The notes under the pieces: model-generated
Told to the model about the DNA's origin: nothing
Databases searched by the model: none
What the model saw: the letters and a program-made list of their open reading frames with translations, nothing else
Made by a program: the position numbers and the translations under genes
Shown: positions 1,036 through 46,494 of the stretch, in pieces
Layout: the number at the start of each line of letters is the position of its first letter
Numbering within the stretch: the first letter of the stretch is position 1
Origin: Rhizophagus irregularis
Taxonomy: Eukaryota
Length of the DNA: 64,000 nt
NCBI RefSeq assembly: GCF_026210795.1
Contig: NC_089435.1
Coordinates: 1,364,001 to 1,428,000 of the forward strand
Direction: 5' to 3'

Positions 1036-1443
1036 GTCAATGGGTCAAATGGGTTAGATTAAAATTCACCCAACCCGTTATCAGATCAGTAAGTTTATTG
1101 GCCCAACACGAAATATTCAGGTCAACCAAACAGGTCACCCAAGTTGACCCGTCCCATTCGGGAACAGCTTCAATAAATAAATTTTATAATAATACTTTAG
1201 ATATTATAATTTAGTTACAAGAAATAACGATTATAATATCATTCTAAGGTAATAATATTAGTAATTTTGAAATATGATGGATTTGGATATTATACTTAAA
1301 TTTACTTAACAAATTGAAAAATGGTAATGTTCAATTCTTTTTTACTTTATTGTAAAAACTGTATGTAAAGTACACAATATAAATATTTTTTATATAATAA
1401 CTGATAAATAATTCAATAAATAAAAAATAAATAACAGAATTAT

Positions 1444-4400
1444 TTAATCAATAGGTTTGAAATCATCATCAATCTCCTGAAACACTTCTTGACTAAAAAT
1501 TTTAGAGCTTGTAGAACTTGTAGAATATGCTTGTTGTATAATAGAAGTATTTACTTTTTCTTGAGTTAAATTTGCTTCTTTTTGTGTTAAATTTGCTTCT
1601 GCTTGTGTTAAAGCTTTGTCTGCTTTAACAAATTCAAGCATATCATTTTTTAATTTCTTATCAATATTAGGTACTTCAAAGATACGATTTCCATCCCTAT
1701 TAAATATATAATAATCATTAATACATCCAATCCATTCAGATATAATATCTTCGAGCATTGTTATATCAGGTCTACTGGAAGGATCTGAATCCCAACATTT
1801 TTTCATTAAATCTATATAACATTGTGGAGTATTTTCATCAATTTTAGGACGATCCCCTTGACAAATTTTCGAGATAAGTTCATGATCATATGCTTCACCA
1901 TTAAATGGAGGAATACCTGATGTAAATTCCCACATTATCATTGAGAAACTATAAATATCACTTGCTGGTGTATATGGTTCGTATCTTAATATTTCAGGCG
2001 CCATAAAAGGTGCAACTCCCCAAGCTTCATTAACTTTATTGTCAGAATTTTGTAAATCACTATTTATAGGTTTGCATAATCCTAAATCAATTATAAATAT
2101 CTCATTGTAATCTTCTGACATTAAAATATTACCGTCATGAAAATCACCATGAGTTAAATTTGATTCATGGATTACTTTAAGTCCTAATATAATTTTTTTC
2201 AATAATTGTAATTTGTCTTGCCACTTAAATTTAATTATATCAGATAAACATTTTCTAAAACTTCCTTTTTTTGCATAACTCATTACTATAATATAATCTG
2301 AATTATTTGGATCTTTGGTAATTCCAAAGAATTGAACAAATTTTGAAAATGATTTTTTCTGACATTCATAATGATACTTCCACTATACAATTAATAATAT
2401 AAAAAAAATTATTAAAATATTGCAAAGGAAAATAGAATTTGCCATTAAATATAAATACTATACCTCATTCAGAAAATTACTATTTAAATTTGATGAATTA
2501 TTAAGCATTTTAAGAATAACCTCATGATTTGTTTGTCTATTCCACTGCTGTTTATCAAAATTCCAACTAAAGACAGGCCCATCTGACCAGATAGCTTTAT
2601 GAATTTCACTAAATCCTCCTTTATCATAATAATTAATGCTTGACAATTTATTATAAGGTATCCACTCCAAAAATTCATAACTGCTTTTAGCACTAAGTTG
2701 TGCTTCTTGAATAAATTTATCAATAAATTCATTTTTACTGGTCCACTTTGAAAAATCTTGTTGAAATCGTTTAGCATTACATTGTTGGCACCACTGGTAA
2801 TCAATACGTTGTTCACATTCATTGCATAATTCAACTTCATTTTTAAAATTTACTTTGTTACTTTCAGTTGCTTTTTGATGCCAATAAAAGGCTTTTTCTA
2901 AATTTTTTTCTATTGCTATTCCATTTTCATAATATATAGCTAATTTGAACATTGCAACTTCATGACCATTTTCTGCTGCTTTTTGATACCATTGAAAGGC
3001 TTTTTCTGGATTCTTTTCTGTTCCTACTCCATATTCATAATGTATGGCTAAATTAAACATTGCTTGTTTATTACCTTTTTCTGCTACTTTTTGACACCAA
3101 TAAAAGCCTTTTTCTGAATTATTTTCAGTTTCTACTTCATTTTCATGATAAAAGGCGGCTAAATTAAACATTGCTAATTCATTGTCACTTTCTGCCGCTT
3201 TTTGATACCAATGAAAGGCTTTTTCCAAATCCTTTTCTGTTCCTTCTCCATCTTCATAACACATGGCTAAATTATGCATTGAATCAGTTAAACCATTTTC
3301 TGCTGCTTTTTGATACCAATAAAAGCCTTTTTCTAAATCCTTTTCTATTCCTACTCCTTTTCTATAACATATGGCTAAATCATTCATTGCTTTTGTATTA
3401 CCATTTTCTGCTGCTTTTTGATACCAATAAAAGGCTTTTTCTAAATTCTTTTCTGTTCCTTCTCCATTTCTATATTTATTGGCTAAATAATGCATTGCTT
3501 CTTCATTATCAGTTTCTGCTGCTTTGTGACATAAATCAAAGGCCTTTTTTAAATCCTTTTTTGTTCCTTCTCCCTTTTCATAACATGTGGCTAAATTAAA
3601 CATTGCCTGTTTATGGCCTTTTTTTGCTGCTATTTGACACCAATAAAAGGATTTTTCTAAATCCCTTTCTATTCCTAATCCATTTTCATGATAATAGGTG
3701 GCTAAATTAAACATTGCATCCATATTACCATCTTCTTTTTCTGCTGATTTTTGATACCAATGAAAGGCTTCTTTTAAATTCTTTTCTATTCCTTTTCCAT
3801 TTTCATAACATATGGCTAAATTAAACATTGCATTCGCATTATTACCTTTTTCTGCTGCTTTTTGATACCAATGAAAAGCTTTTTCTAAACTCTTGTCTAT
3901 TCCTATTCCATTTTCATAGCATATGGCTAAATTAAACATTGCTTCTTCATTACCTTTTTCTGCTGCATTTTGAATCCAATTAAAGGATTTTTCTAAATCC
4001 CTTTCTGTTTCTACTCCATAATTATGATAATAGTCAACTAAATTAAGCATTGCTAATTCATTACCATTTTCAGCTGATTTTTGATACCAATAGAAGGCTT
4101 TTTCTAAATTCTTTTCTGTTCCATTTCCATTTTTATATGAATTGGCTAAATTAAACATTGCGTTTGCATGTCCATTTTCTGATGCTTTTTGATACCAATA
4201 AAAGGCCTTTTCTAAATTCTTTTCTGTTCCTTCTCCATTTTCGTAACATATGGCTAAACTATACATTGCTTCCTTAACACTATTTTCTGCTGCTTTTTGA
4301 TACCAATAAAAGGCTTCTTTTAAATTCTTTTGTGTTCCTTCTCCTTTTATATAACATGTGGCTAAATAATACATTGCTTCTTTAATATCATTTTCTGCTG

Positions 4401-5290
4401 CTTCTTGATACCACTCAAAGGCCTTTTTTAAATTCTTTCTTGTCCCTTCTCCATTTCCATAACATAAGGCTATGTAATACTTTGCTTCTTTAATACCTTT
4501 TTTTTCTGCTTTTTGATACCAAGTAAAGGATTCTTCTAAATTTCTATCTGTCCCTGCTCCATTTCTATAACACATGGCTAAATAAAACATTGCTTCTCTT
4601 ACACCATTATTTGCTGCTTTTTGACACCAATAAAAGGTTTTTTCTAAATTCCTTTCTATTCCAACTCCATTTCTATAACACATGGCTAAATAAAACATTG
4701 CTTCTTTTACATCATTTTCTGCTGCTTTTTGATACCAATAAAAGGTTTTTTCTAAATCCCTTTCTATTCCAACTCCATTTAAATAACACGTGGCTAAACT
4801 AAACATTGCTTCTTTAACACCATTTTCTGCTGCTTTTTGATACCAATAAAAAGCTTTTTTAAAATTCAATTCTGTTCCTTTTCCACCTCCATAGCATATA
4901 GCTAAAATAAACATTGCTTCTTTATCGCCATTTTCTGCTGCTTTTTGATACCAATAAAAGGCTTTTTCTAAATTCTTTTCTGTTCCTTCTCCATTTCTAT
5001 ATGTATTGGCTAAATAAAACATTGCTTCTTTATCATCATTTTCTGCTGCTTTTTGATACCAATAAAAGGCTTTTTCCAAATTATTTTCTGTTTTATCTCC
5101 ATTTCTATAACATATGGCTAAATTAAGCATTGCTTTAATATCACCATTTTTTGCTAATTTTTCAAAAGAATTAATACATTCTTTGCAATATAATTCTTCA
5201 GTAAAAGTTTTATTGCAATACACAATTTATGATGTTTACTGTATCAGTATCTTTATCTGAAATATTTAATTCACTAATTTTGGCTTCCAT
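1444..5290 (-). CDS. Sel1-repeat (~21 x 36 aa) plus tyrosine-kinase-like protein kinase; exons 5290..2464 and 2382..1444; frameshift near 5221
   Basis: Repeats of the form EKAFYWYQKAAENG..AMFNLA..Y..G.G; GT-AG intron 2463..2383 joins NEV/WKYHY as in the paralog at 20979; kinase motifs VILK, HGDFHDGN, DLG, APE. ATG at 5290 (MEAKISELNISDKDTDT) matches the paralog start but is out of frame with the long ORF. Confidence 0.9.
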
Positions 5291-7225
5291 TTGATTATTT
5301 ATTTTACTTGAAAAAAAAAAATTATTATTTTTTTTTTCAGACAAATTTTTTTTCAAACAAAATTTCTCTTAATATTTAATGAATAAAGTTATTAAAAGAG
5401 AATAATTTAACCAAAAGTAGACATGGGACTACGAAATAAAAAAAATAAAATGGTGAATATAAAAAAGTTTTTTAAAAGAAAAAGTACGGTGTACCGTTTG
5501 GATGAAAAGTGCCAAAATTTCGAAAAATTGATTTTTCGAATTTTTGAATTTTAAAATCTCCTTATAAGGAGATTCTCCTTATAAGGAAAATCTCCTTTTA
5601 TGGAAATGTAACGTTACACAAATGTCCAAATAAGGAAGTTTGTATTACCAAATTTCCTTTTTTGGACGTTTTGTGTAACGTAGATCTATCCTATAAAAGG
5701 AAAATTTCCTTATAAGGCGATTTTAAAAGTTCAAAATTTCAAAATTTCGAAATTTCAAAAAAAAATTACCATAAAAGGAAATTTTTTTTAAGATTTTTGA
5801 AATTTTGAAATTTCGAAATTTTGAATTTGAAAATCGCCTTTTAAGGAAATTTTCCTTTTATGTAAGGGATCTACGTCGCACAATATTTAATTTATAGTGC
5901 CAGCCAGAATTATAATCTCCTTATACAGAAATTTTGTTTAAAAATATTTTTTTAACAAATCTGGTGGCTAAACTATTTACCCGAATTCCGAAATCATGTG
6001 TTAATATTTATTTTTACCAAAAATTGGAGTAATCCTGGCCGGATTTAAGAAAAATATTAATGTAACGTTACACAAATTTCCAAAAAAGGAAATTTTGCTT
6101 CTCGCAAAAAATTGGAAATTTGGTTTCACAAATACTCCAAAAAAGGAAATTTACATGGCGATCACTTAATTCCGGCCAGCATTATAAATTTTTTATATTC
6201 TTTATTAATTAAAAAAATTTAATTTTTTTTAATAAACTTTTAATTTTTTTTTTAATGATCTATATATACTTTATTAATATTAAGTTCATATACCATATAA
6301 ACAAATTATCATAAGCTATATCCATCCAATAGAATGCAATCATCAAAATAATAAACTTTTAATAAACTTTAACTTTTTAATTTTTTTTAATAATAATAAT
6401 AATTATTATTATTATTAGCATTATATTAATTTTTTAATTATGCAAAATAATTATCAATTTTACCAATGGCTGGTATCTTCTAATATTTGTATTTGAATAA
6501 TACATATTTTTAATGAAGAAAAAGCAATATATGATAAAATTTATATTAATAAAATTTTTAATAATTTTTATTTTTTTTTTGTTTTTTTATCAAATTTTCA
6601 ATTATACAAAATAAATATTTATATTTAAGTGATGTATTAAATATGTTTTTAATGAAAAGAAAACAATATATAATGAATTTATTTAATATTCTTTTTAATA
6701 AATTTTTTTATAATTTTTATATTTTTATTTTTTAATTTTTCTTAAAAAACTTTTTAACTTTTAACTTTTCTTAATTTTTTTGTTTTCTTTTATCAAATTA
6801 TTTTCAATTATACAAAATAATTATCAATTTTACTAATGGCTAGCATTTTCCAATATCTGTATTTAAGCGATATATTAATGTTTTTAATGAAAAGAAAGCA
6901 ATATATGATAAAACTTATATAATATTCTTTTTAATAAATTTTTAATAATTTTTATGTTTTTTTTTAATAAACTTTTTTTATAAACTTTTTAATTTTTCTT
7001 AATAAACATTTTAATTTTTTTTAATAAGCTTTTTAATTTTTTTTAATTTTTTTTGTTAATTTTTTTATCAAATTTTCAATTATACAAAATAATTATTACT
7101 GATTTTATTAATAACTCAATATTTGTATTTAAGTGATATATTAAACATATTTTTAATGAAAAGAAAACAATATATAATAAACTTATTTAATATTCTTTTT
7201 AATAAAATTTTTTATAATTTTTATA

Positions 7226-8989
7226 GGAATATGTTTTTTTTTCACCTGCAATATGTCACATCTTCCTTTTTTTTATTTTATTTATTTATTTATTTTATTA
7301 CTAAAAGAGTGGCAAAACCCAGGCTATTACAAATAGAAGGAGAAAGAATTCGAAAAAACTTAAGACTAATATATGTGTATAGACCTTTATTTGTCATCCC
7401 CTACGGGACCTCACTCTTCGATCTGTACTATTTGATAAAGTAGGACTACGCTAATAAATCAAATGGGAACCATAAAAAAAACCATCTGAGAGACTAGCGG
7501 CTATCTAAAAAAAGAAAGTTAAAGGCAATCAAAATATAAAAATTAAGATCCGTATTTTCCTTTCAACCAAGGTTGCCACCTGTGAATACTGTAAGAGGTG
7601 GAATGTTTCACACTATTTTAAGTTGTGTTATACATATGATAACGAAAAAAGAACCGAAAATGTAGATTAAACTACTAGATAAATGTAAAAACTCCAAATA
7701 AAAGAGTACTAATATATATATATAATTAATTAAACTGTCTTAGAACTTGAAGGTCCTGGTACCAGGGAGTCATCGGTAGTATCTGGTGAAGGACGTAGTC
7801 TTTGCATGTTATAATCCTGAAATGAGAAATAATGATTCTCATTATTAATATTATCACGTTTGTTGGGCCGATATTCGACCTCTGCTGTATCATCTGATAC
7901 ATCAATATATTGAACGAGAAATTGAAGAAGGTTTTCGTTGTTGTATTCTTATTGTTGATTTTTTGTTCATATGATTTGATAAACGTGATTCTATCTAATA
8001 ATTTTTGGCGTATCATATTAAAATATTTTTTTTTGAATACGGCGTGGAAAAACTCGTTGGGCAGAAAAAAAATGCTGAAGCTGTTTGCTAATTTGAAATT
8101 TGGCGCTTGGTAGTGTACTTGTGGAATGATACTGAATAGGGGTAGTTGACATGAGATAGTCATTTGTGTGTATCCTTAAGTGAATTTGATTGGTGTCTAA
8201 ATTATGATCAACAATCTCAAAAAAGAAACTTTTTGAACGTCTGAATTCGTAAATCTTGTTGTAACCGGCTTTGTGTATTCTGGTCACGTGAAATTTTGTG
8301 AAAGAAATGAGAAAAGAATTATTTTCGCACGAAGGCGGTGAAAGGCATAAAGGAGTGTGGACATGTATAGTCGAGAATAAAGTATCCTGTAGTTGTATAT
8401 TTGTATCTAAAACATTATTTTCAGCAGGTCCGTCTTCAGCAATATTACTTCTGATATCGGAAATAGCGTCCAACTGTCTATAAGATTTCAGAGACTCGTA
8501 TGATACCGAGGAAAATCTATCTCAATAAAGTTTGAAGAAGTCATATCCCTAATATATGGGCATTAATAAGAACAAAAACCTTGTACTGTGACCGAAGCGC
8601 CCTACAGGGCCTCTTATCCCTTTGGGTGTTTCAAATAGAAACGAAAAAAAACCTTGCGCTAAATTACTGCGGAAAACTAACAAAATTAAAAAAGGGGGAA
8701 AGAGTTTTTTTTTTTTCATCTTCCTTTTTTTTGGTAATTTTTATATATTAATTATGTTGATCATTTTGATCACATGACTTTGTTAAGATTTTCCATTTTT
8801 TTAAAAAATCCTGGTGTGAAACCTTATGCACTTATTATGTACTATAAGAAACCTTATACTATATGTATTTTTGACCGCTCTGCAAGTTTTCTTAATATAT
8901 CAAAAGAGATTTAGATTGTCATTTTGACTTTTATATGTAATATATTATAGGAATGCGACATAACACAGGTATGATAAAAAATAAAACCC
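7226..8989. mobile_element. MULE-like MITE (~300 bp net) interrupted by a retroposon
   Basis: Interrupts a repeat unit; imperfect ~40-bp TIRs (GGAATATGTTTTTTTTTCACCTGCAATATGTCACAT vs reverse complement GGGTTTTATTTTTTATCATACCTGTGTTATGTCGCAT); 9-bp TSD ATTTTTATA/ATTTTTATT. Confidence 0.55.
7275..8716 (-). mobile_element. Internally deleted, frameshifted copy of the RT-less protein-coding retroposon family (see 14332..16836)
   Basis: 16-bp TSD CATCTTCCTTTTTTTT (7259-7274, 8717-8732); (AAAT)n/A tail at 7275-7300; 5' end AAAAACTCTTTCCCC shared with copy 1; ORF pieces 8018..8473 and 7726..8163 align to the 653-aa ORF (KFHVTR..AG.NKIYE.RRSKSFFFE; IQKKYFN.IR.KLLDR); a C-terminal piece SDDTAEVEYRPNKR matches SDDAKQLEIRPHKR. 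Confidence 0.88.
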
Positions 8990-9341
8990 ATTTTTATTTT
9001 TTTATTTTTTTATTTTTTAATTTTTCTTAAAAAACTTTTTTTTCTTTTAACTTTTCTTAATAAACTTTTTAATTTTTTTTGTTTTTTTTTGTCAAATTAT
9101 TTTCAATTATACAAAATGATTATCAATTTTACTAATGACTAGCATTTTCCAATATTTGTATTTAAACGATATATTAATATTTTTAATAGTAAGAAAGCAA
9201 TATATGATAAAACTTATATAATATTCTTTTTAAATAATTTTTATATTTTTTTTAATAAATTACAATAAACTTTTTTTATAAACTTTTTAATTTTTCTTAA
9301 TGAACATTTTAATTTTTTTTTTTTTATCAAATTTTCAATTA

Positions 9342-9497
9342 CAATCAACCCTTGTTATAACGAACCCTAGATTCCAGACCTCAACTTCACTATATAGTTA
9401 TAGTAAAGATTTTAAGAAATTTAATTGGTTAATTCATTATAACAAGGGGAAATTTATTATAGTTGTCTGAAAAATTCACTATATCAAGAGTTGACTG
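9342..9497. mobile_element. pogo/Tigger-like MITE (156 bp)
   Basis: TA|CAATCAACCCTTGTTATAACGAA ... TTCACTATATCAAGAGTTGACTG|TA; removal restores the host repeat CAATTATACAAA; TIR resembles the pogo at 52445. Confidence 0.8.
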
Positions 9498-12179
9498 TAT
9501 ACAAAATAATTATCAATTTTACTAATAGCTAGCATTTCCAATATCTGTATTTAAGCGATATATTAATGTTTTTAATGAAAAGAAAGCAATATATAATAAA
9601 ACTTATATAATATTTTTTTTAAATAATTTTTATATTTTTTTTAATAAATTATAATAAACTTTTTTTATAAACTTTTTAATTTTTCTTAATAAACATTTTA
9701 ATTTTTTTTTAATAAGCTTTTTAATTTTTTTAATAAACATTTTAATTTTTTTTTTTTTAACAAATTTTTAATTATACAAAATAATTATTAATTTTACTAA
9801 TGGCTTAATATTTGTATTTAAGTAATATATTAAATATGTTTTTAATAAAAAGAAAACAATATATACAATATATAATGAACTTATTTAATATTCTTTTTAA
9901 TAAATTTTTTTATAATTATTATATTTTATTTTTTAATTTTTCTTAAAAAACTTTTTAACTTTTTTCTTAATAAACTTTTTAATTTTTTTTTTTTTGTCAA
10001 ATTATTTTCAATTATACAAAATGATTTTCAATTTTACTAATGGCTAGCATTTTCCAATATCTGTATTTAAGCGATATATTAATATTTTTAATAAAGAAAA
10101 AGCAATATATGATAAAACTTATATAATATTCTTTTTAATAAATTTTTTAATAAATATTCTTTTTAATTAATATTCTTTTCTTTTTAATAAATTGTTTTAA
10201 TAAATATTCTTTTTTTTATAAATTAAAATTAATATAAATTTGAAAATCATAAAATAAGCATATCTTAATCTGTTTTATAAGTTTACTTAAAGAAAAAAAA
10301 TAGTTTTTAAATACTATTTTTAACTTTATATTTAAACGAAGATTTTGCTAATTATATCCAAAAATAGAAAAACAAGAAAATGGCATTTAAAACCTTATTT
10401 TGTATTTTAAGTAAACTTATAGAGCAGATTAAAATAGTACATTTAATATATTGTATATGTTTAAAAGATTGTATTATTTTATATATATGGTGAAAATTTT
10501 ATTTAGAAAAAAATTTTTTTTTGAAATTATATAATTTACTTCTACTTTAGACATTTTTCAAAAAGGAAAGTGTAATGCATTATATATGTAATGAATAAAT
10601 TTACTTATAATAAAATAATATAAAAAGGATATTAAAGGCAAATATTGGAGAGACTTATTGGAAAAAATATAAAAAATTTATTAAAAAAAAATTTTATTAA
10701 TTTGCATTTTAGGTAAAATTATCTAAAATAAAATTTAGCAGTTTAAACAATTGTTAAAATTTAGCCTACAACATTACCACTAGCTAATAATAAATAATAA
10801 CAGATTAATTATTGAAAATAAAAAATAGAAAGTATAATGTCTGTAATAAATAGCTTTTTTAGTATTATTACAAAATTTTTCTTATATAATCATAGCAAAA
10901 ATTTATCACCTTATATAATAAATACTTTAAATACTCTTCACATTTCCATTTTTATAAGTATTCTAAAAACAGAATTTTTTCAGTAATTAAAATCTATTTA
11001 TTATGATCTTATTTATCATATGGTTCATAATGTTAGCCAAAAAATCATGAAAAAAAAATTTTGTAGTAATACTACTAATAAATTAAATAAAAATTAAAGA
11101 ATATAAAAGAATATTAAAAAGAATATTAAAAAAATTATCACACTATAATTAAGCTATAATGCTGGCCGGAATTAAGTGATCGCCATATAAATTTCCTTTT
11201 TTGGAGTATTTGTGAAACCAATTTTCCAATTTTTGCGAGAAGTAAAATTTCCTTTTTTGGAAATTTGTGTAACGTTACATTAATAATTTTCTTAAATCCG
11301 CCCAGGATTATTCCAATTTTTGGTAGAAATTAAATATTTCCTTTTTTGAAAAATTGATCACAAGTAATTGTAAAATTAATAAAATCAATTATAATTCCGG
11401 CCAGAATTACAATCACATGATTTCGGAATCCGGGTAAATAGTTTAGCCACCAGATTTGTTAAAAAAATATTTTTAAACAAAATTTCCGTATAAGGAGATT
11501 ATAATTCTGGCTGGCACTATAAATTAAATATTGTGCAACGTAGATCCCTTACATAAAAGGAAAATTTCCTTAAAAGGCGATTTTCAAATTCAAAATTTCG
11601 AAATTTCAAAATTTCAAAAATCTTAAAAAAATTCCCTTTTATGGTAATTTTTTTTTGAAATTTCGAAATTTTGAAATTTTGAACTTTTAAAATCGCCTTA
11701 TAAGGAAATTTTCCTTTTATAGGATAGATCTACGTTACACAAAACGTCCAAAAAAGGAAATTTGGTAACACTAACTTCCTTATTTGGATATTTGTGTAAC
11801 GTTACATTGCCATAAAAGGAGATTTTCCTTATAAGGAGAATCTCCTTATAAGGAGATTTTGAAAATTCAAAAATCGAAAAATCAATTTTTCGAAATTTTG
11901 GCACTTTTCGTTCAAACGGTACACCGTAAAAAAAGCTCCGAGAAAAAATCAAATACGTTTTTTTTTTAAAAAAAAAAGGAGATAGCGGGTAGTTAAAAAA
12001 AATAAAACAATATATTTTTTAAAAAAGGGTAATGGGTGAGAAATAATAAGTTTAAAGAAAAATTTTTTTTTTTTAAGAATAAAAAAAAATTTTAAAGAAG
12101 TAAAAAGGGAAGGAGATGTGAGTGAATTTAATATTCACGGATGTCTATCGGGAAGATCAGGAATCGTTCGTCCATTCGA

Positions 12180-13789: not shown

Positions 13790-14331
13790 CATTCAATGGC
13801 CGTCCGGACACGTGATCAATGATCTGCATATACACTGTATTACGACTATTACGTAGACTTCAACCATTGTAACACCTAAGCCCATGATAAATCATGTTTG
13901 CCACCTTAGGTATTAACAAAATTACTCTTTATTAATAATATAAATAAATACAATAATATTCTTGGTTTAATAATATCACATGATAAATAGAATAATTATA
14001 TTAAAATATATTTTCTTCCATTCGTAACTCTAGAATTGTAACTTATATTTTTGGGAAGTTATATCATTACCCCTATTTATAGTTGTTTATGTTTCACCAA
14101 ATTCATAATTTAAGTCATGGACTTTTAACTTTGACATTTCCATGAGATTATCTTTATAAATTTTGAGATCCATGAATTTTTAATCCTTAATTATTTCCAT
14201 CTATAATGATCATCATTACCCCCTTAATTATGATTCATAATAAATAGTACCCTAACGTTATGATCTACGAATTGGTCACCTGATATTTCAAATCACTTGA
14301 TTTTAATGATCTACTAGTTTATTGTCATTGC

Positions 14332-16836
14332 GGACAAAAACTCTTTCCCCTTTCCATTTTTTCACATAGAAATCCGCAGTTAAATACTGTTTTTTTTACT
14401 TACCCTTTTTTACGTTTGTTAACGCTCGAGAAGAAAGAGGACCACTGGGTGGCCTCTTATGGAAAGGTTCTTCTCCTTATTACCCGACCTTTGAAAGCAG
14501 TTTTTATGATAAAATATTTTTTTTATCTCACACCCATATACATATTGAAAAATATGGCTTCTTTTTTTCCTAAACATATTTCCTTGGGAAAATTTTCTTT
14601 CGATGTCTCATTCCACAAATTTCACGTGACTAGACCCAAACGGGCTGGATGTAACAAGATTTATGAAATCAGGAGATCAAAAAGTTTCTTTTTTGAGCTA
14701 GTCAATCCCTCAACAAACACCAATGATATTCATCTTAAAATACACACAAATGATTATCACATGAAATCGACCCCTATTAGCTACTCTTCCACCTGTAGCT
14801 TTCCTAATCTGAAATACCAGATTAGTAAGATGTTACAACATTTTTTTTCCCATCAAAAAGTCATCCCCCGATCTATTCAAAAGAAATATTTTAATCTTAT
14901 TCGTTCCAAATTACTTGATAGATATTTTCTTATCAAATCACGTGCTGACACAGTCACACAAAGAAATTCCCGCACAAAAACTTTCTTTAATTTTTCTTAT
15001 AAACGTTATCGTTTTTACTTTGGTATTTTCACACCATGTAACTTCTCCATTACTCACAATTTTGGAAGTGAACACACACAGTTGTGTAGTGTCCCCTCTC
15101 CCTTCATTATGTCTCATAATAGACGAGCCTGCGTTTCTCATCATAAAAATTTAGACATTTTTCATAATGTCAAGAAACACACCCCGTTATTGACCCATAA
15201 TGACACTATTAACCACAAAGAAGCTCACGCATTGCGCACTTATTTCAATTGGAAACATGGCACGAAAAAACACGTTTACTCAAATCGCTTAGGCATTTCG
15301 TACGATGTCTCGTACTTAGCGAACATATATAACCATTTCAACACGCAGAAAAAACACCTTATGTACCGTAAACGGTTAGATAATTTCCGTTCACACCATT
15401 CCGACAATAGTAAAAGGAGTAACAAACAAAAATCCCGCTTTCAGCGGGCATGTAGATCGGTTTTCTACAATCGTGGTAATAACAAAAAGTCACAGAGACG
15501 TGTGGATAGTCTTGAAGAAAAACTTCAGCGTGCTAGACAACACCGTTTTCTATTTTTACCTTCACAGCATATTAACAAACCTATACAACATGTGAATTAC
15601 CATAACCCGTTCCGCCGACCCGCTCCACGTTATCCAAGGGACGATTCAATTAGTACGACAAGTACTAGCTCGCCTGCCACCAATTCACAACCCGTTCCCG
15701 TCGAAGATGAGAACATTTGGCACGACAAGCTGGGTATTTGGATTCCTAACAGTCTCCTTCCTTACGTAACTGACGAACCTGTTTATATTTCTAAAAGACA
15801 GGCCAAACTCAAAGGTCAACATTTTACGCCAGGCTGTGCGTATTGGTTAGATGGTATTAAAAAGCGTAAAGAAGCTCATGAATTAGCTTTACGTCAACAA
15901 AAAGATCAAGAAGCACATGATAATGCTCGCCTCACTCTTGAAAAAGAACTTTCCGCCAGAGCTCAACTCTGGGGTACCTCTATCAACCGTATAGAATATC
16001 GTGAAGATATGACGAAAGACCTCACCAGTTTCCAGGATCATTATCACAAGAAAATCACGCCTCTGATTGAGCGTCGTGCTGTTCTAGAGAACAGGCTTAA
16101 ACAGGGAAAAAACATTTTCAAAACTAACAAACAATTACTCCAGTTAGAACAGGAGCTTGGTCGTTTTAATATCGACTATTTCTCAGTCATGAACATTGAT
16201 GACTACCATTATCGTTATAAAGGACACACATCCGATGATGCGAAACAACTTGAAATCAGACCACATAAACGTCCTCCTGTCTCGACTATAATTGCAGACA
16301 GGCACACCACCCACAACAAGAAATTGAGACTAGATATTCTCTCTTCAGCAGACTTTAAAGTCTCCGCCTCACTTTAACAATTTTTAGATCACCTATCAGC
16401 TTATCTTTTATTTTTAGTGGCACGCTGATAGTCATAGTTTACGTTATACCTAGCCACTTTTTTTTATTTTTTTTGACTAGTATTTTATTACATCTTTTTT
16501 TTTGGGTAACCCCACGTACACCTTTTTAACAACGTACAACAATAAGAATAGTGTGAACCATTCCACCTCTTACAGTATTAACAGGTGGCGGTCTTTTCGA
16601 CCGAAAGAAAAATATGGGTCTATGTTTAGATTGCCTTTTCTTTGGTCCATTGGGATGTGATGTCATGTTAGGGACTCCTCCGGGTTCGTTAAAGGTACCA
16701 GAGTGGCGCTGTCCTCGGGCGGTTTGATTATAGCTTAGTATTAGATAGCGTTCGACTTTTGTTTTATCTTTTGTTCTTGTCTATCTTTCTGTAATCTTGT
16801 TCACGTGGTTTTTAAAAATAAAAATAAAAATAAAAA
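14332..16836 (+). mobile_element. Non-LTR-type retroposon lacking reverse transcriptase, with a single ORF, (AAAAT)n tail and 11-bp TSD
   Basis: TSD ATTGTCATTGC at 14321-14331 and 16837-16847; tail AAAAATAAAAATAAAAATAAAAA; cleanly interrupts a solo LTR; visibly more GC-rich than the flanks. Confidence 0.9.
14554..16377 (+). CDS. Intronless, basic (K/R/H-rich) ~607-aa protein of unknown function with a C-terminal coiled-coil-like region; sole ORF of the retroposon (ORF open from 14416)
   Basis: Uninterrupted 653-codon ORF; likely start MASFF at 14554; homologous degenerate copy at 7726-8473; no RT, endonuclease or CCHC motif seen. Confidence 0.8.
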   Translation: MASFFPKHISLGKFSFDVSFHKFHVTRPKRAGCNKIYEIRRSKSFFFELVNPSTNTNDIHLKIHTNDYHMKSTPISYSSTCSFPNLKYQISKMLQHFFSHQKVIPRSIQKKYFNLIRSKLLDRYFLIKSRADTVTQRNSRTKTFFNFSYKRYRFYFGIFTPCNFSITHNFGSEHTQLCSVPSPFIMSHNRRACVSHHKNLDIFHNVKKHTPLLTHNDTINHKEAHALRTYFNWKHGTKKHVYSNRLGISYDVSYLANIYNHFNTQKKHLMYRKRLDNFRSHHSDNSKRSNKQKSRFQRACRSVFYNRGNNKKSQRRVDSLEEKLQRARQHRFLFLPSQHINKPIQHVNYHNPFRRPAPRYPRDDSISTTSTSSPATNSQPVPVEDENIWHDKLGIWIPNSLLPYVTDEPVYISKRQAKLKGQHFTPGCAYWLDGIKKRKEAHELALRQQKDQEAHDNARLTLEKELSARAQLWGTSINRIEYREDMTKDLTSFQDHYHKKITPLIERRAVLENRLKQGKNIFKTNKQLLQLEQELGRFNIDYFSVMNIDDYHYRYKGHTSDDAKQLEIRPHKRPPVSTIIADRHTTHNKKLRLDILSSADFKVSASL

Positions 16837-17399
16837 ATTGTCATTGCAAACCAATTATCCTCATGGCTAGTAGTTTAACGTCTTTTCGGACCAATATTTA
16901 TCCTTAAGTCATATGATTGTTAGTTTAACGTCATCCTGGACCAATTAAAAATACAATTTTAAACTAGAAATTTATATACTAAGATTAAATATAATACTGC
17001 GCCCCACAATTATTAAATTTACTAGATAAGCTACGGCATTACACCATGCAATGTTCGTCCGTCCAGAACGTGATCTATATTAAGCACAAAATTTTCTTGC
17101 AGTACCAGCTTAAGGTATAGTTAGGAAAATATTTTGGGTAAGGATAGGAAGGCGATTTAGGAAAGAATGATTTATAATTCTGGAAACTTTGTAAGATATC
17201 CAAGTAAAAATTTTTACTTTAAAATGTTTACAAAACTCTCAGAATCCTATTGAATCCCTAATAAATGAGGTACGATATTTATAAGTATATGTTTTGATTT
17301 TTTTTTTTTTATCATAATTCATTAATTTCTTGAAATTAGAGAAATAATATTTAAATTAACAATTTTGAATCAATTACATATTCCATCAATATTTCTATA

Positions 17400-20815: not shown

Positions 20816-20978
20816 TTTTTTTAGTGTAACATCTGCTTTAGGTTAAAATATTCCTTTTTAGTAAGTAGTTACCCATTCAATGGCATACTGAATAAAAGAA
20901 AAGCTTTTAGTCTAAAAAAAAGTTTAAAAAAAAATTTAAAAATTTTTTTCGGTAAAAATAAATTTCTAAAATAACTAA

Positions 20979-23900
20979 ATGGAAACTAATTTGAGCAATT
21001 TAAATATCTCAAACAAAGATACTGATACAATAAACAACGAAAATTGTTTATATTGTAATAAACCTTTTATTGAAGAATTATGGTGTAAAGAATGTATTAG
21101 TTCTTTGGAAAAATTAGCCGAAAATGGTGATAAAGTAGCAATGTTTAATTTAGCTAATAAATATAGAGATGGGGAAGGAGCAAAAAAGAATTTAGAAAAA
21201 GCATTTTGTTTATATCAAAATGCAGCAGAAAAAAATCATATTGAAGCAATGTTTAATCTAGCCAAAAGGTATTACAATGGAGAAGGAACAGAAAAGAATT
21301 TAGAAAAAGCCTTCTATTGGTATCAAAAAGCAGCAGAAAATGGTTATGAAAAAGCAATGCATAATTTAGCCATATGTTATGTAAATGGAGAAGGAACAGA
21401 AAAGAATTTAGAAAAAGCCTTTTATTGGTATCAAAAAGCAGCAGAAAATGGTTTAACTAATTCAATGCATAATTTAGCCTTATGTTATGTGAATGGAGTA
21501 GGAACAGAAAAGAATTTAGAAAAAGCCTTTTATTGGTATCAAAAAGCAGAAGAAAATGGTTTCACTAATGCAATGTATAGTTTAGCTATATGTTATTACA
21601 ATGGAGAAGGAACAGAAAAGAATTTAGAAAAAGCCTTTTATTGGTATCAAAAAGCAGCAGAAAATGGTTTCACTAATTCAATGCATAATTTAGCCTTATG
21701 TTATGTAAATGGAGAAGGAACAGAAAAGAATTTAGAAAAAGCCTTTTATTGGTATCAAAAAGCAGCAGAAAATGGAGATGAAAAAGCTATGTTTGGTTTA
21801 GCCATATGTTATAGAAATGGAGAAGGAACAGATAAGAATTTAGAAAAAGCCTTTTATTGGTACCAAAAAGCAGCAGAAAATAGAGATGAAAAAGCTATGT
21901 TTGATTTAGCCATATGCTATAAAAATGGAGAAAGAACAGAAAAGAATTTAGAAAAAGCCTTTTATTGGTACCAAAATGCAGCAGAAAAAAATCATATTGA
22001 AGCAATGCATAATTTAGCCCTTTGTTATTACAATGGAGAAGGAACAGAAAAGAATTTAGAAAAAGCCTTTTATTGGTATCAAAAAGCAGCAGAAAATGGT
22101 GTTAAAGAGGCAATGCATAATTTAGCCTTACGTTATGAAAATGGAGAAGGAACAGAAAAAAAATTAGAAAAAGCCTTTTATTGGTATCAAAAAGCAGCAG
22201 AAAATGGTTTCACTAAAGCAATGCATAATTTAGCCATATGTTATTACAATGGAGAAGGAACAGAAAAGAATTTAGAAAAAGCCTTTTATTGGTATCAAAA
22301 AGCAGCAGAAAATGGTTCCACTAATGCAATGCATGATTTAGCTGTATGTTATTACAATGAAGAAGGAACAGAAAAGAATTTAGAAAAAGCCTTTTATTGG
22401 TATCAAAAAGCAGCAGAAAATGATTTAGCTGATTCAATGAATAATTTAGCTGTATGTTATTACAGTGGAAAAGGAACAGAACAAAATTTAGAAAAAGCAT
22501 TTTATTGGTATCAAAAAGCAGCAGAAAATGGTTTCACTAAAGCAATGCATAATTTAGCCATATGTTATTACAATGGAGAAGGAACAGAAAAGAATTTAGA
22601 AAAAGCCTTTTATTGGTATCAAAAATCAGCAGAAAATGGTTTCACTAATTCAATGTATAATTTAGCCTTTTGTTATTACAATGGATTAGGAATAGAAAAG
22701 AATTTAGAAAAAGCCTTTTATTGGCGTCAAAAAGCAACAGAAAGTAACAAAATAGATTTTAAAGAAGAAGTTGAATCATGCAATATATGCAAACAGCTAT
22801 ATACTAATTATCAGTGGTGTCAACAATGTAATGTCAAACAATTTCAACATGATTTTTCAAAGTGGACCAGTAAAAATGAATTTATTGATGAATTTATTCA
22901 AGAAGCACAACTAAATGCCAAAAATAGTTATGAAATTTTAGAATGGATACCTTATAATAAATTGACAAATATTAATTATCATGCTAAAGGAGGATTTAGT
23001 GAAATTCATAAAGCTATCTGGTTAGATGGTCCTATTTTTAGTTGGAATTTTGACAAACAACAATGGAATAGACAATTAGGTTATGAGGTTATTCTTAAAA
23101 CACTTAATAATTCATCAAGTTTAAATAGTAAATTTCTGGATGAGGTATATCTATTATTTATATTTATTAGCAAATTTTTTTTCTTTTACAAAAATTAATT
23201 TTGTTTTATTATTTATACAGTGGAAATATCATTATAATTGTCAGAAAAAATCATTTTCAAAATTTATTCAATTTTTTGGATGTACCCAAGATCCAAATAA
23301 TTTAAATTATATAATAGTAATGAGTTATGCAAAAAAAGGATGTTTAAGAAAATGTTTATTTGATATAATTAGATTTAAATGGCAAGAAAAGTTACAATTA
23401 TTGAGAAAAATTGTATTAGGGCTCAAAGTAATTCATGAATCAAATTTAACTCATGGTGATTTTCATGATGGTAATATTTTAATATCAGATAATTACAATG
23501 AGTTATTTATTATTGATTTAGGATTATGTAAACCTATAAATGATTTACAAGATTCTGACAATAAAATTAAAGAAATTTATGGAGTTTTACCTTATATGGC
23601 ACCTGAAACATTAAGACAAAAACCCTATACACCAGCAAGTGATATTTACAGTTTTTCAATGATAATGTGGGAATTTACATCAGGTATTCCTCCATTTAAT
23701 CATGTAGCACATGATCATCACCTTATTTTGAGTGTCTGTGAAGGGAAACGCCCTGAAATTGTTGAAAATACTCCAAAATGTTATATAGATTTAATGAAAA
23801 AATGTTGGGATTCAGATCCTTCCAATAGACCAACCATAACAATGCTTGAAGATATTATATCTGAGTGGATTAGATGTATTAATGAATATTATAGAATAAA

Positions 23901-24117
23901 CAGGGATGGAAATTATAAATTTGAAGTATCTAATATTGATAATAAATTAAAAGATGATATGTTTGAATTTATAAAAGCAAACAAAACTTTAGTAGAAGAG
24001 CAAGCAAGTGCTTCTATTATACAATCTCATACACAAGCATATTATACAAGCCGTAAACTTACTGAAATCTTAGTTCAAGAAAAGTCCGATTGTTTTGAAT
24101 GTATGGTTAAAATTTAA
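20979..24117 (+). CDS. Sel1-repeat (~15 x 36 aa) plus TKL protein kinase, ~1020 aa; exons 20979..23144 and 23221..24117
   Basis: 108-nt Sel1 repeats; GT-AG intron 23145..23220 in phase; VILK, HGDFHDGN, DLG, MAPE, SDIYSF motifs. Confidence 0.93.
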
Positions 24118-24498
24118 TAATTCTGTTATTTATTCTTTATTTGTTGTACTATTTGTCAGTCATTATATTTCAATTTTTACTATAAAATAAATATTTAAAT
24201 ACAGATATAATAATTATCAAAATAATCTTTATTATAATTTTTATTTGAAATTTGAAATTTATGTTTAATATTCATATCCATACTTTAAGATTAAGAACTT
24301 ACCAGTATAATTTATTGCCTTAAAAAAATATTATAATTATATTTCATAGACTATGGATTCTTAAAATATAATCATAAAGTTCATTTATTGAAGTTGTATC
24401 ATCAATACCATCTTTTAAAACAGCTTGGATTATTACTTATTTCTATTTCCTTTTTAATTAAGATTGATAAACTAAACTTATATTTGGCCAATCCCTAT

Positions 24499-28553: not shown

Positions 28554-31500
28554 TGGTATTATGTATTTTAGAATTTGTCTTATTTGTCTTGAAATAAATT
28601 TTATGATGATACTTGGGCGATATTTCCAGCCATTTTTATATAAAAAAAATGGGCAATATTCTTACATGCCAAAAATAGTACAAATTCTTAATTAAGGTAT
28701 AAAATATCAGGGTTTCACTAAAAATAACTTAAAACTTCTTTCAAAAAACTTAAAAATATTAAATAAATTAATTTCGTCGGTAGTGTTACATTATTAAAAT
28801 TAACTCTCTTTGTTAGATTAAAAATATCAATGGATCAGAATTTTAAAATTCAAAAGACAACGTTCAGTAGTAACTAAATCACTAGCCAAAATAAGCGAAC
28901 ACGATATAGTAATGAAATACAAAATTATAGAATGTTCTATTTTTTTACTTATAAAGAAGCCAAAACAAAGAAATATTTTTATGAATAATTAATTTATTTA
29001 TTTTTTTTTTTGTTTTACGTTCTTAACTTTATTTAAATAAGGAGTTAAATGACCGACATATTATTCATGTATCACTAACATGATGAGAATGAGAAAGTGT
29101 AACTATATAATTTTAATAACAAAGAAATTCTTTGTCGATTAAATATAATAATGGTCAAATAAATTTGATGTAAGACGAAATCAATTATGATGTAAACTGA
29201 CGATGACAATAACAATTTTTATGGGACACAAATCGGAAATAACCTTCCGAGTTACGTTACAGAAAATAATCATGTACAGTATTTGTTTTAAAAAATATTT
29301 AGATTATTAATATATCTTATATTTGTAAAATGTATCTTAATGAAGGAGTAACTTAATTATTTCATATAATAATTTAACTATATTAAATAACCTGCATTTA
29401 TTTTCACTTTGGTACAATTTAATTTGAACGTCAACGTTAAATTTAATATAATAAAATCGACTGTAACACAATATTGTATTCAAAATCATTGCTACAAGTA
29501 AAAAAAAAAGAGAGAAATTTCTATCAAGAACGATACAAAGTTTTTAAAACTAGCCAAAATAGTAAACCGGATACTAAAAAAAATTTTCTTGTTTTGAAAA
29601 TGGTAGTACGTAACTCGAACATATAAACTATTGGTAACGCCAAGATAATTGATACTAACCTAATAAGGATATTAATACAACCCATTTATGGTTAAATCTG
29701 TACTAATATGTTAATCACTTATTATTTATGGTAAGTTAATATTGCAATTTTTTACGATGAAAAAAAAAACAAAACCTGTTCGTTTGTGATAAGGAAATTA
29801 CCATAAAAGGCTCTCATATGATAATTAATATACATGTTCAATTGTTTCATTATGTTTCATCTTCCAAATCAATCGTTACAATTTACAAAGCAAAAAAGGA
29901 GATATCCTTAAAAAGTAAACAAAAAGATGGAACATAGTTTTACCGTTCATTTCTGAAAATTAATAATTAATGAAATTACGGATAAAAGAAAAAATTATAG
30001 AAGATGAACACAAATTAGAAATAATAATTTAACGGTAATGTCTTACAAAGTCTCACAATTTACAAGATTACTAGTTTAGTTACTAGTTTTTGAGCTGTAT
30101 ATTTCTTCGCATCCTCTAAAGTGTTCCAAATGTCCAGAAATGTATAGAAAATTGTTTGATAATTATTTTAAATAATTAGATACAAATTTGACCTTGGGTG
30201 GACGATGAATTATGTAAATATCGCAAAAAAAGAATAAAATTATATATTCATTAAAATTTTTATTTTGTGATAAAAACATAATATTAAACGAAAATTAATT
30301 TTATTTATCTGCCAAATATTCTCGTGATTTTAAAGCTTCGAAGGAGATATTGGCGTCATCAAAGTTTCCTGTGTCAGCAACAACAACTCGGAATAAGTTG
30401 TAGAAGCAATATGTCAAATACTCTGATCAATTCCTATATTCGATCATCAATAAACATACAGTATGTAAATTGCACATGACATTCAACGGAAACTGATGAC
30501 GTTATGTTAACGTTAAGTTAATGTTAACATTTTGTTCGTCACTTCGTCTTATATATTTAGTAGTGCTAAATTTAGCGCCACTCACCATATCAAAGATTTT
30601 TTATATATACATTTTGCCATAGAATTATGTTATATGACAATCACTTCTAAAATTAATTAATTTTGACCAAAAATTTGATCATTCTACCGTATTTCTTTTT
30701 TTTATTTATTTATTTATTTTGTAGGTTCTGGCTTCTTCTGAGAGACTTTTGGATGGTAAGTTAGTTGTTTGAGAGTAGAGTTTTAAAATTGATTAAGAAA
30801 CGTGCTAAAAGCTAACATTTCTTTTTTTTAAATTTTGCAGAGTTTAGTCTCTCTGGAGAGGACTTTCGGACGATAATTATCATAATAAAAATTGGTCTGT
30901 ATAAAAACATTAAAAAATTCAATTTAACATATACCAAGATTTAACCATTCTATTATTATCTATATAATATAATAAAAAAATTCATGTCGATCTTCTAACG
31001 TTTAGATTAGCCTGTATAAATAATTTTTGAATTGTGTACCGCATATCAGATGATTCCTTTTAAATAATATTTATTGGTAAAATGATTGACAAGTTCATGA
31101 TAAAATATCTGCGCCTGATCTATACTTAAAAGGTTAACAGTTAAGATAACTTGATCAGCAAATACTGATTACTAAAATATAATAATTTTTCGATCAACTA
31201 ATATTTATTTGATTTTTCTTATACCTTTTTTCATAATAATATAAAAAAAAGATTTGTAATAATGATAAATTACTGCAAATACGATGATTAATTTTTTTTG
31301 TTATAATAAATAATGTTTTTCGCGATATAGATTTTTTTGCAATAATTTTTTTTTGTAATTTTTATTTTTTTGCAACTAGAGTTTTGCTAATACTAATTAG
31401 TGATAGTATGTAACTTTTTTTAATAATAAGTTTCCTTTAAAAGAATTTTTTTTTCATAATAAATTAGTAACTGACGTTTACTAATAATAAATATTACAAA

Positions 31501-31668
31501 AGTTATACAATACAATAAATACGAAATTGTCTTTTTATCTTTCTTTAATTTAATTAAAAAAATAATGTATACTAAAATACATAAATACACACACATTTAA
31601 CATCTAAAGACATTTTTTTTCAAATAAATTATTTTCTTAAAAAAAAAAATAGATATATTATTATAACC

Positions 31669-32632
31669 ATACCTGCAAAATTATCTTTATTATGTTTAAT
31701 TAACTCAGTAAGCGAAAAGGACAGCTCAAATTATATTATAAGAGAAGCTATTGCAATCATAAGGAAAGAAGACAATACCTCTATGGACTTGAAATTAACT
31801 TCTTTTATTCCAAAAAGCTCTTCAGCTCCTAGATGGATTCCTCTATTTGAACCGGACAATATTTTAAGACTTACAGGAAAATTTATTCTTGAGGAAGAAC
31901 CTCTTCATGGGATTTTACAGGTACAATATTTTACATTTTTATATTTTAAGCTTCTATTTAATTATAATTAAACAATTGATTAAAAAATAGATAACAGCAA
32001 ATGCTGGTGATCTTATTGAAATTAGCAAAGATAATCTTCCAACGAGTTCAGTTTCAGTTTTTATTACAGGATTTGTTGTTGATCAAGTTCAAAATGATGA
32101 TAATATATTTAGAACTATAAAAATTATTACCTCTGAATTTGCTGGTAATAATACGAATAAGTTTTACATCAAATGCAGGTATTTAAAAACAGATGAAAGA
32201 ATTGAAAAAAAAGCTACTAAAATGAGAAAAAATTCAAGTGTAATGATAACTGGTGAGTTGACTCTGGTCAACTCCAAGTTTAAAATAGAAATTCAAGACT
32301 TAAACTTTCTATCAACAACAATTGGCAACATTGAATCTTCCTCAACAACAAGTAGTTCTGCCTCCTCTTTGTATTCTTGGCCTACAACTCCATCTTCAAG
32401 AATGTCTGCCCAGAAAATAGCAAACACCCTTACACCTCAAAATTCAATACCAGATAATCAACCCTTAAATATAGTTACTAATTACGAACTTATTAATGAT
32501 GAGAATTCTTCACATGATGACGATAATGATACTTCCCCAAGTACTCAAACACCACCAAATACTCGAACACCATCAAGTACTCGATCAAATACTCAAAAAA
32601 CACCTAGAGGAAGAAAAAGAACAAAAAAATAA
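31669..32632 (+). CDS. Helitron-borne protein with probable tandem OB folds (ssDNA-binding-like) and S/T-rich basic tail; exons 31669..31920 and 31991..32632; apparent start codon is ATA
   Basis: Intron 31921..31990 (GT-AG) fuses ORFs 31783 and 32222 in frame; SSB-like strands DNILRLTGKF and MRKNSSVMITGELTL; ends in PRGRKRTKK. Confidence 0.65.
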
Positions 32633-33742
32633 TGAAGTTTATATATATTAATTATTAACAAATTATAATTATTTAATTTAACTTCTTTAATTCATTTTTT
32701 TTTTCTTTAAATTTAAATTTATATTATATGAATACTTAGTGAGCACTTTTTAAAAAATTAGTTTTTTTTCTTTTTTTGTTTTAATAACCAATTATGAACA
32801 TTTTTTTTCTGATTTTTTTTAGTAAGATTTCAACTTTTTTGATTACTTTCTTTTTAATGGAATTTTGAGTTTTTTCCCCTTTTTAGTATTTTTTATCAGA
32901 ATTTTTTTGTACGAACTTTGATTTTTTTTTTAAATTGATTAATATACACGTTGATCCTTATAATTTTTTTATTGTGTACCCATAATTTATTTGTACCTGA
33001 TCTATACTTAAAAGTTAAGATCACTTGATTAGCAAATGTTGATTACTAACGTATAAAAAAAATTTTTCAGTTACTGGCATTTCGCTAATACTAATTAGTA
33101 TTAATATATTAATCCCCTCACTTTTTTTGATCGCTTAAACAAAAAAAAATTCTCTAAAATTATTATGATTTATGATTTTTTTTAGTAACAATAGATTTCC
33201 TATAATGTTATTTTGCGATATAGATTTTTTTTCATCAGTTTTTTTTTTGTGATTTTGAATTCCTGATAACTGATATTTTGTTAATAGCATGTAATTTTTT
33301 TTAATAATAATTTTTCGCTAACAATATTATTTTTCATAATAGATCAGCAATTGATGTTTTATTAATAATAGATAATTAATTTTTGATAATAATAATAAAT
33401 TCTTATAACAGATTTTTTTACTACAATGAAAATTGTATAATAGTATTTTTGTAATTTTTTTAATTAAATTTTTTTCCTTATATTGTTTATTAACATAATA
33501 GCAGATAATTTATTGTGAATATTTAATAATCATACTTTTTTGTGATTTTATAATATAATAAAAAAATACATGTCGATCTTCTAACGTTTAGATTAAGTCT
33601 GTATAAATAATCTTGAATTGTGTAGCATGATTCAGTGCCTGATTTAAACTTAAAAGTTAAGGCCATTTATTTGATCGGCAAACGTATAGATTTTTTTAAC
33701 TTAGCTAATTTTTGATCGGTTAAACAAAATTTTATTGCGAAG

Positions 33743-41888: not shown

Positions 41889-41959
41889 AAATTTATTCTA
41901 AGAATCGAACTCGTGTCTCGAAGTGGTAGGTGCGAATTATACCACTAAATCAAGCATGC
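41889..41959 (-). pseudogene. Degenerate tRNA-Gly-like sequence inside the LTR element, just upstream of the PPT
   Basis: GCATGCT TG ATTTAGTGGTATAAT TCGCAC CTACCAC TTCGA GACACGAG TTCGATT CTTAG: A-box, ACC/GCC-like anticodon loop and B-box/T-loop present; 3' acceptor strand lost. Confidence 0.7.
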
Positions 41960-42135
41960 ATTGTCACTTGACTCAGCTGCGTTTTAAATATTCCTTTTTG
42001 CTGCGTCTACATCTGCGGTTTATCATGTGTTTGTTAAATCTACGGTTTTCCTGTACCGGATTTCACTTCGGTCTTTCTTAGGAAATTTTCATTAGTTTTT
42101 CCTATTTTCGAAAATTATTTTTATGTCATGTGATT

Positions 42136-45757: not shown

Positions 45758-45906
45758 CCTCACACAGAATTGTTTTTGAAAGTTCACACAGAACTATTCT
45801 CAATTGATCACACAGAATACCTCAATTGAGTTCACACAGAAAAAGCTCACACAGAACTATTCTCAATTGATCACACAGAAAACCTCAATTGAGTTCACAC
45901 AGAATT
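45758..45906 (-). repeat. Seven TCACACAGAA motifs in the 5' UTR of the LTR element
   Basis: Directly visible, with CTCAATTGAG palindromic linkers. Confidence 0.8.
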
Positions 45907-46476: not shown

Positions 46477-46494
46477 TTCTCAGAGCATGCACCA
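46477..46494 (-). promoter_or_regulatory. Primer binding site, 18 nt, complementary to a tRNA 3' end ...TTCTCAGAGCATGCACCA
   Basis: TGGTGCATGCTCTGAGAA begins 2 nt after the 5' LTR. Confidence 0.88.

Follow-up and report, generated by a model that had tools for sequence, protein, structure and literature searches.

Results

The two insertions

The window analysed here is a stretch of 64,000 nucleotides of the Rhizophagus irregularis genome (assembly GCF_026210795.1, contig NC_089435.1, positions 1,364,001 to 1,428,000 of the forward strand), with a GC content of 27% and with Sel1-kinase, BTB-TLD and Gypsy sequences; all positions below count from its first nucleotide. It holds two copies of an element whose only long open reading frame (ORF) is assigned through its relatives to the family DUF8211/PF26638, and this element is, with little doubt, a non-autonomous retroposon of some kind. 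Outside the window the family was studied in protein collections, in two short metagenome loci (L001 and L002, 1.1 and 1.7 kb) and in six sequencing runs, including X18, which is only guessed to be RNA, and X20, which is recorded as RNA. Runs containing the stretch or a part of it made up 20 of the 24 listed, and the first four to be compared with it were X1, X2, X4 and X5. Relatives of the ORF at up to 97% identity were R. irregularis proteins. The full-length element, copy 1, lies in a solo Gypsy long terminal repeat (LTR) between target site duplications (TSDs) and has untranslated regions (UTRs) on both sides of the ORF.

13868..17043, + strand: host solo Gypsy LTR split by copy 1, TG..CA ends, CCAT duplication at 13864-13867 and 17044-17047
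14336..16836, + strand: copy 1, full-length element, 2501 bp (from junctions, TSD and contigs of runs)
14321..14335, + strand: left TSD of copy 1, 15 bp, the first 11 exact (LTR relatives read through the site)
16837..16851, + strand: right TSD of copy 1 (direct repeat)
14336..14553, + strand: 5' UTR of copy 1, its terminus common with copy 2
14554..16377, + strand: sole long ORF, 607 aa, DUF8211/PF26638, isoelectric point (pI) 10.1
16814..16836, + strand: A-rich tail of copy 1, (AAAAAT)n, the A-rich run continuing to 16837

An earlier sequence-only reading had described a 2.5-kb unit with an 11-bp TSD, an A-rich tail and a single basic protein of about 607 aa, splitting a solo LTR. The host LTR was confirmed by its ends, by the CCAT duplication and by its relationship to the intact LTR pair at 41198-41854/46496-47152, and the tail and the single ORF were found as described. 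An exact 11-bp repeat is indeed present at 14321/16837, but the full duplication measures 15 bp with two mismatches (13/15 identical). The start of the element moves accordingly to 14336, because the four bases after the left 11-bp repeat belong to the target and LTR copies elsewhere read through them. In 1500 random pairs of 25-nt windows 1-3 kb apart, an exact 11-mer was shared once and a 16-mer never. A contig of X1 crosses the 5' junction (14085-14365) with zero differences, which argues only against an assembly slip, as X1 may be the source sample. Gene model P0283 of a public assembly starts at the same 5' terminus and is 90% identical. The start giving 607 aa was preferred since the change 14508 G>A removes an upstream ATG at 14506 in X4 and in X5. 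Neither a tRNA nor an Rfam head was detected in the 5' region, and the 5' UTR likely holds an internal RNA polymerase II (Pol II) promoter.

Copy 2 lies upstream, on the opposite strand.

7275..8716, - strand: copy 2, chimeric element of 1442 bp with a deletion, ending in a (TAAA)n/A tail
8717..8732, - strand: 5'-side TSD of copy 2, 16 bp
7259..7274, - strand: 3'-side TSD of copy 2, 16 bp
7730..8544, - strand: frameshifted ORF remnant, N-terminal part of one subfamily and last 60 codons of another, joined near 7912
7560..7612, - strand: 3'-UTR RNA motif of copy 2

This copy had been taken for an independent, diverged one with its own duplication and tail. Both of these are there, as an exact 16-bp repeat at 8732/7274 and an A-rich tail at 7267-7296, but the copy itself is an internally deleted chimera of two subfamilies: its first 800 nt resemble one (87%) and the 60 codons at its end a second (93%), with the middle lost and the frame broken. 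Copies 1 and 2 could be compared over 386 nt of ORF, at 69% identity, and about 100 nt of 3' UTR, at 76%. The proposed common 5' terminus held when that of copy 1 was scored against 4264 windows, copy 2 being the top non-self match (46.5; the next, unrelated, 36). The junction within copy 2 recurs in three proteins (five accessions, two named strains), one of which could be this very locus. That this broken chimera multiplied shows that cis signals suffice for copying, with these signals in the ends and the proteins supplied in trans. A possible third fragment was not recovered: neither a six-frame search with the family profile nor nhmmer with the two ends matched anything but copies 1 and 2, and the candidates at 61466-61528 (weak match, E 0.022) and 30696-30720 (a tail) were rejected as having no family sequence.

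Copy 2 sits inside an AT-rich unit at 5485-11928 with long inverted ends (517 bp, 97.5% identical, and an inner pair of 250 bp). The unit is likely a non-autonomous DNA transposon of Mutator-like element (MULE) or Foldback type; a TSD of at least 7 bp was not found at the ends tested.

Mobility and family size

In three of the first four runs compared (X2, X4 and X5) the whole LTR together with the element was absent, a contig joining 13867 directly to 17053. This joint represents the state preceding the arrival of LTR and element and occurs at about single-copy depth. Its depth in X2, X4 and X5 was 260, 230 and 20, while contigs of the element in the same runs reached 342-458, 751-800 and 111, i.e., 1.3 to 5 times the joint; these contigs carried 3-8 differences and were about 99% identical. 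Summed depth peaked at the ORF start and in the 3' UTR; these peaks were not read as copy numbers. At 90% the closest protein belonged to a cluster of 16 members, 15 of them listed. In one assembly an identical 422-aa model of this cluster occurred four times, each time with its own accession and contig; in a second assembly, four locus tags lay on contigs of four different megabase lengths. Other DUF8211 subfamilies likewise showed identical or nearly identical proteins at several loci. Given the empty site in three runs that hold pieces about 99% identical, and an identical protein at four loci, the element has moved recently: DUF8211 elements are recently mobile in Glomeraceae fungi, in several subfamilies.

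A profile search returned 638 relatives, and 153 core sequences fell into 112 clusters at 90% and 34 at 55%. In a tree of 89 rows, five R. diaphanus rows were placed in three positions among the R. irregularis subfamilies and four Glomus cerebriforme rows outside them, so that several subfamilies likely predate the species. Two rows of this tree (P0248, P0249) were wrongly labelled R. irregularis, which leaves the R. diaphanus placements unaffected. Named relatives were restricted to Rhizophagus and Glomus; no relatives were found in the viral contigs and prokaryotic genomes searched, the 33 short-pattern matches being due to chance. Pieces of the element occurred in X20 at depth 2-7 and in X18, a weak hint of expression.

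Absence of reverse transcriptase

No Pfam domain of a reverse transcriptase (RT) or endonuclease was found in 110 relatives or in 122 more (0/232). In neither copy was there an RT inside the TSD pair, and the ORF of copy 1 held no RT, endonuclease or gag-type knuckle. The original description of a protein free of RT, endonuclease and zinc knuckle thus stands for these three, not for zinc ligands in general, as a nearly invariant CCCH motif is present (see below). The best 150 of the 638 profile matches were all at most 697 aa long, and a translated piece of the 3' UTR gave no match in a weak search of 474-2000-aa proteins. In X18 (15256-16576) and X4 (16058-16440) one contig each runs through the stop codon and on into the 3' UTR, and translated 3'-UTR sequence of DUF8211 elements is part of the gene models P0038, P0067 (R. 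diaphanus) and P0207. This is good evidence that the 3' UTR follows directly after the ORF, with no ORF2 between, in three subfamilies, not in all.

An 866-nt contig of X18 shared only 149 nt with copy 1 (16649-16797, 2 differences), with other sequence upstream, and is a candidate 3' end of a partner long interspersed nuclear element (LINE), a short interspersed nuclear element (SINE) or another subfamily. In P0207 the 3'-UTR sequence is followed by the C-terminus of an ORF, as from tandem copies or mis-assembly, and the same may hold for P0067. In P0106 a DUF8211 model is joined to a BTB fragment, which likely reflects an insertion beside a host gene.

The DUF8211 protein

A DUF8211/PF26638 domain was precomputed for 108 of the 110 relatives; it was not reported by a Pfam profile search of the copy 1 ORF itself. 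The family is basic, with a median pI of 9.7 over 52 long members. Three regions of the protein were distinguished.

14581..15603, + strand: conserved core (aa 10-350), predicted alpha/beta fold (pLDDT 90.6, pTM 0.73)
15037..15141, + strand: predicted zinc site C162-C178-C193-H196 (94/96, 93/96, 121/122 and 123/123 rows)
15838..16164, + strand: long helices (aa 429-537), then a basic disordered tail with a pattern like a nuclear localization signal (NLS)

More than 60 positions were conserved at 85% or more in 130 rows. The nearly invariant C-x15-C-x14-C-x2-H (CCCH) motif differs from a gag knuckle. Conserved acidic residues were E48 and D67 only, which disfavours an RT or a common nuclease site. 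The ratio of non-synonymous to synonymous substitution (dN/dS), a check proposed at the outset, was 0.087 between copies 1 and 2 over 99 codons and 0.20 against L001; by these ratios the ORF is under purifying selection between subfamilies. Young copies showed 57 differences in all, of which 40 were shown and 31 were listed as ORF substitutions; 11 of these 31 were synonymous, against 21% synonymous sites.

Modelling with AlphaFold2 followed by Foldseek, also proposed at the outset, gave a confident core and no structural relative. The whole protein was modelled at pLDDT 80, with the helical part as short helices or a hairpin, and the NLS-like pattern recurred in 68 of the 136 proteins that were at least 400 aa long. 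Neither the full model nor the core had a Foldseek match at E <= 0.001 in PDB or BFVD. In VIA the best Z for the core was 3.3, and the helices matched only generic helical bundles (Z <= 5.5). Searches of PDB sequences and PHROGs gave no match, and hhalign found no internal repeat. ESM Atlas offered no usable match; clusters of DUF8286, at 0.78 and sharing 78-85 of 256 features, give no more than a lead. Known types of LINE ORF1 protein (ORF1p), with an RNA recognition motif, a gag knuckle or a coiled-coil trimer, were not matched by Pfam, PDB sequence, Foldseek or VIA, an unlisted family being possible. The core is a candidate new fold, though the lack of a match does not prove one. From its charge, the CCCH motif and analogy, the protein may bind RNA.

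The 3'-UTR RNA motif

16552..16607, + strand: predicted pseudoknot and hairpin in the 3' UTR of copy 1 (covariation in three sequences)

A putative RNA motif of two crossing stems and an adjacent hairpin was recognized in copy 1, copy 2 and L001, with 45 of 46 cells paired. Two-sided changes were seen in 8 of 16 pairs, against 0/500 shuffles. The match in L001 beat all 200 base shuffles, and none of 33 chance pattern hits formed both stems. In L001 (170-290) the motif precedes the start codon of a distant DUF8211 gene, at a distance of about 50 nt. Rfam gave no family match at the motif up to E 10, a search that can miss divergent members of the known self-cleaving ribozymes, whether similar to that of hepatitis delta virus (HDV) or of the hammerhead, twister or pistol type. 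A reading of the motif by eye as similar to the HDV ribozyme was dropped: it is incompatible with the covarying stem, and copy 2 has no counterpart of the candidate catalytic C placed by the HDV consensus.

In L002 (222-430), a possible 5' end of an element and a tRNA gene stand head to head, the former upstream by about 125 nt. This recalls TRE5 targeting and is one case.

Other features in the window

An LTR element at 41198-47152 has 100% identical LTRs of 657 bp and a GTGT duplication. Its sole long ORF listed codes for a 1033-aa gag-like protein with a CCHC knuckle, with no pol ORF of at least 120 aa, and it is possibly a young gag-only non-autonomous element. Short ORFs at 30963-33624 are enclosed by inverted repeats, 77 bp long at 93.5% and some 400 bp long at 66%, and this unit is likely another DNA transposon. 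Two Sel1-repeat protein kinase genes, at 1164-5421 and 20832-24397, stand in inverted orientation and are 79% identical; expanded families are typical here. A 348-aa ORF at 53604-54650 presumably resembles a pogo/Tigger transposase of the CENP-B-type DDE group.

Discussion

Mode of copying and rival explanations

Target site duplications of variable length together with an A tail are the mark of target-primed reverse transcription, a process for which this element needs both RT and nick in trans. We consider it reasonably likely that the element is copied in this way by the RT and endonuclease of a LINE, recruited through the 3' UTR, with its own protein as an RNA-binding packaging factor. A Pol II transcript would start at the defined 5' end from an internal promoter and would be bound by the DUF8211 protein in a role like that of ORF1p, which deleted copies could use in trans. 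The LINE enzymes would be recruited through the structured 3' UTR, and insertion by target-primed reverse transcription would leave the 15-16-bp TSD and the A-rich tail. Present-day DUF8211 elements would then have no RT-bearing parent among them. The proposal of a self-contained, RT-less unit mobilised in trans was in this way upheld by the empty site with nearly identical pieces, by identical proteins at several loci, by stop codons leading into the same 3' UTR and by purifying selection. The two findings named beforehand as speaking against it, an RT ORF inside the same TSDs and an intron-containing host gene, did not appear in the sequences examined, where both were partly testable. The familiar classes fit poorly as well: there is no RT/endonuclease ORF as in an autonomous LINE, no tRNA or other Rfam head as in a SINE (and a 607-aa ORF under selection instead), and, contrary to a processed pseudogene that is "dead on arrival", onward amplification is seen.

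Several points weigh against this explanation. Only two elements (copies 1 and 2) were read with both ends, and X2 may be mixed, since an identical piece of the solo LTR is also present in it. The proportion of synonymous differences (pS) between the copies was 0.74, near saturation; in the young copies 20 of the 31 listed ORF substitutions were non-synonymous, and a split or partial state is common among the models. The three sequences on which the RNA structure was tested are those from which it was drawn, and by folding z (-2.3 for copy 1, +0.6 for copy 2, -0.4 for L001) only copy 1 beats shuffles. A pure 3' recognition role does not explain L001, because the motif is upstream of the ORF there. 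The RNA evidence is thin, with X18 being RNA by guess and X20 of low depth. The partner LINE was not found in the protein collections searched. A weak search revealed no fused RT among proteins of 1064-3035 aa, and since ORF1 and ORF2 are usually separate gene models, the absence of such fusions is weak evidence.

A bolder possibility, which we hold as tentative, is a self-standing class of RT-less retroposons that never had an RT of its own and would stay active across Glomeraceae through a zinc-binding protein of new fold and a portable pseudoknot, used at the 5' or 3' side, which would hijack an unrelated RT or self-cleave. It is rather unlikely that DUF8211 is instead the ORF1 of an extant autonomous LINE and that the elements are ORF2-deletion derivatives, true analogues of half-L1 (HAL1). 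The anatomy equals that of HAL1, TRE5-A.2 and HeT-A, LINE ORF1 proteins can be without homology to other ORF1s, as in TRE5-A, and the 866-nt contig of X18 could be the 3' end of such a parent or partner. Yet none of the 232 relatives carries an RT or endonuclease domain, and the 3' UTR comes right after the ORF in at least three subfamilies, one of them in R. diaphanus; with the R. diaphanus rows in three places of the tree, the loss of ORF2 would have to be old or repeated. We regard it as improbable that the DUF8211 protein acts as an enzyme with a new fold (nuclease or targeting factor) and supplies the nick, leaving only the RT to be borrowed. Its conservation is unusually strong for an ORF1 and its compact, confident core has no structural match, but the conserved acidic residues are just the two mentioned, no nuclease was matched by sequence or fold, and the chimera with a broken ORF still multiplied, though supply in trans permits that.

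The family could also consist of retrocopies of a host gene and be no transposon, as TSD, A tail and intronless ORF equally mark processed pseudogenes and the public models are named as ordinary hypothetical genes. The many 90% clusters among the core sequences, several young bursts at multiple loci, purifying selection between subfamilies, re-amplification of the broken chimera and the restriction of named relatives to Rhizophagus and Glomus make this quite improbable. Still further down we place an integrated circular or permutable RNA replicon, similar to a retrozyme or viroid, with the motif as its ribozyme. In its favour are the position of the motif, 3' of the ORF here and 5' in L001, and the order of parts in P0207, which is that expected of a tandem; the defined shared 5' end, the A tails, the missing Rfam ribozyme match and the absence of relatives in viral contigs and BFVD speak against it.

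Relation to known systems

Returning to a retroposon served by a LINE, the DUF8211 element would work like HAL1, HeT-A and TRE5-A.2; this is a likeness in working and is not claimed as descent from a LINE ORF1. The protein of HeT-A carries gag knuckles. HeT-A adds only to chromosome ends, without endonuclease, whereas the DUF8211 copies are dispersed, have TSDs of 15-16 bp and encode no gag knuckles. In the sections available of PMC4700185, HeT-A of Drosophila is a long-lived ORF1-only retroposon dependent on foreign RT, with a nuclear localization signal. HAL1 of mammals is, by the excerpt available of PMC5753468, a non-autonomous non-LTR element coding for one protein, and in this the two elements agree; HAL1, however, is derived from L1 and encodes the L1 ORF1p, while DUF8211 matched no ORF1p by sequence or by fold, and a parent has not been seen. 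TRE5-A.2 of Dictyostelium has no ORF2, is mobilised in trans, has an ORF1p without homology to other ORF1p and needs a 3' module, according to the part available of PMC5633606. It shares sequence with an autonomous parent, TRE5-A.1, and targets tRNA genes; for the DUF8211 element no parent was seen, and the window has no tRNA gene. SINEs with structured 3' ends derived from LINEs are likewise RT-less, tailed and flanked by TSDs, but the DUF8211 element differs from them in being 2.5 kb long and protein-coding under purifying selection, with no tRNA or Rfam head.

DUF8211/PF26638, to which the ORF is assigned, is filed as a domain of unknown function, and no link to mobile elements was found. 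No paper describing the family or mentioning DUF8211/PF26638 turned up in the literature searched, which took in the available parts of PMC11952901, PMC13465315 and bioRxiv 10.1101/2022.10.19.511543; Repbase, Dfam and a GitHub repeat library lay outside this search and may hold it as an unclassified repeat. Six member accessions were absent from seven of the eight supplements of PMC8647823, which may use other identifiers. We regard it as a real and apparently undescribed family. In arbuscular mycorrhizal fungi two-thirds of the repeats have no classification, and a transposition domain was required for an element to be retained in curation, as stated in the available text of PMC11075540. Under such curation a DUF8211 element would escape notice and pass for a lineage-specific gene.

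The results suggest that the members of a large "orphan gene" family in these fungi are transposon cargo, which would give the family an identity as a mobile element. With an RT-less coding retroposon that stays conserved and active across species, the question of why a parasite of a parasite should retain a protein becomes testable. In addition, the family offers a candidate new fold, a new RNA motif and insertions polymorphic between strains that may serve as markers.

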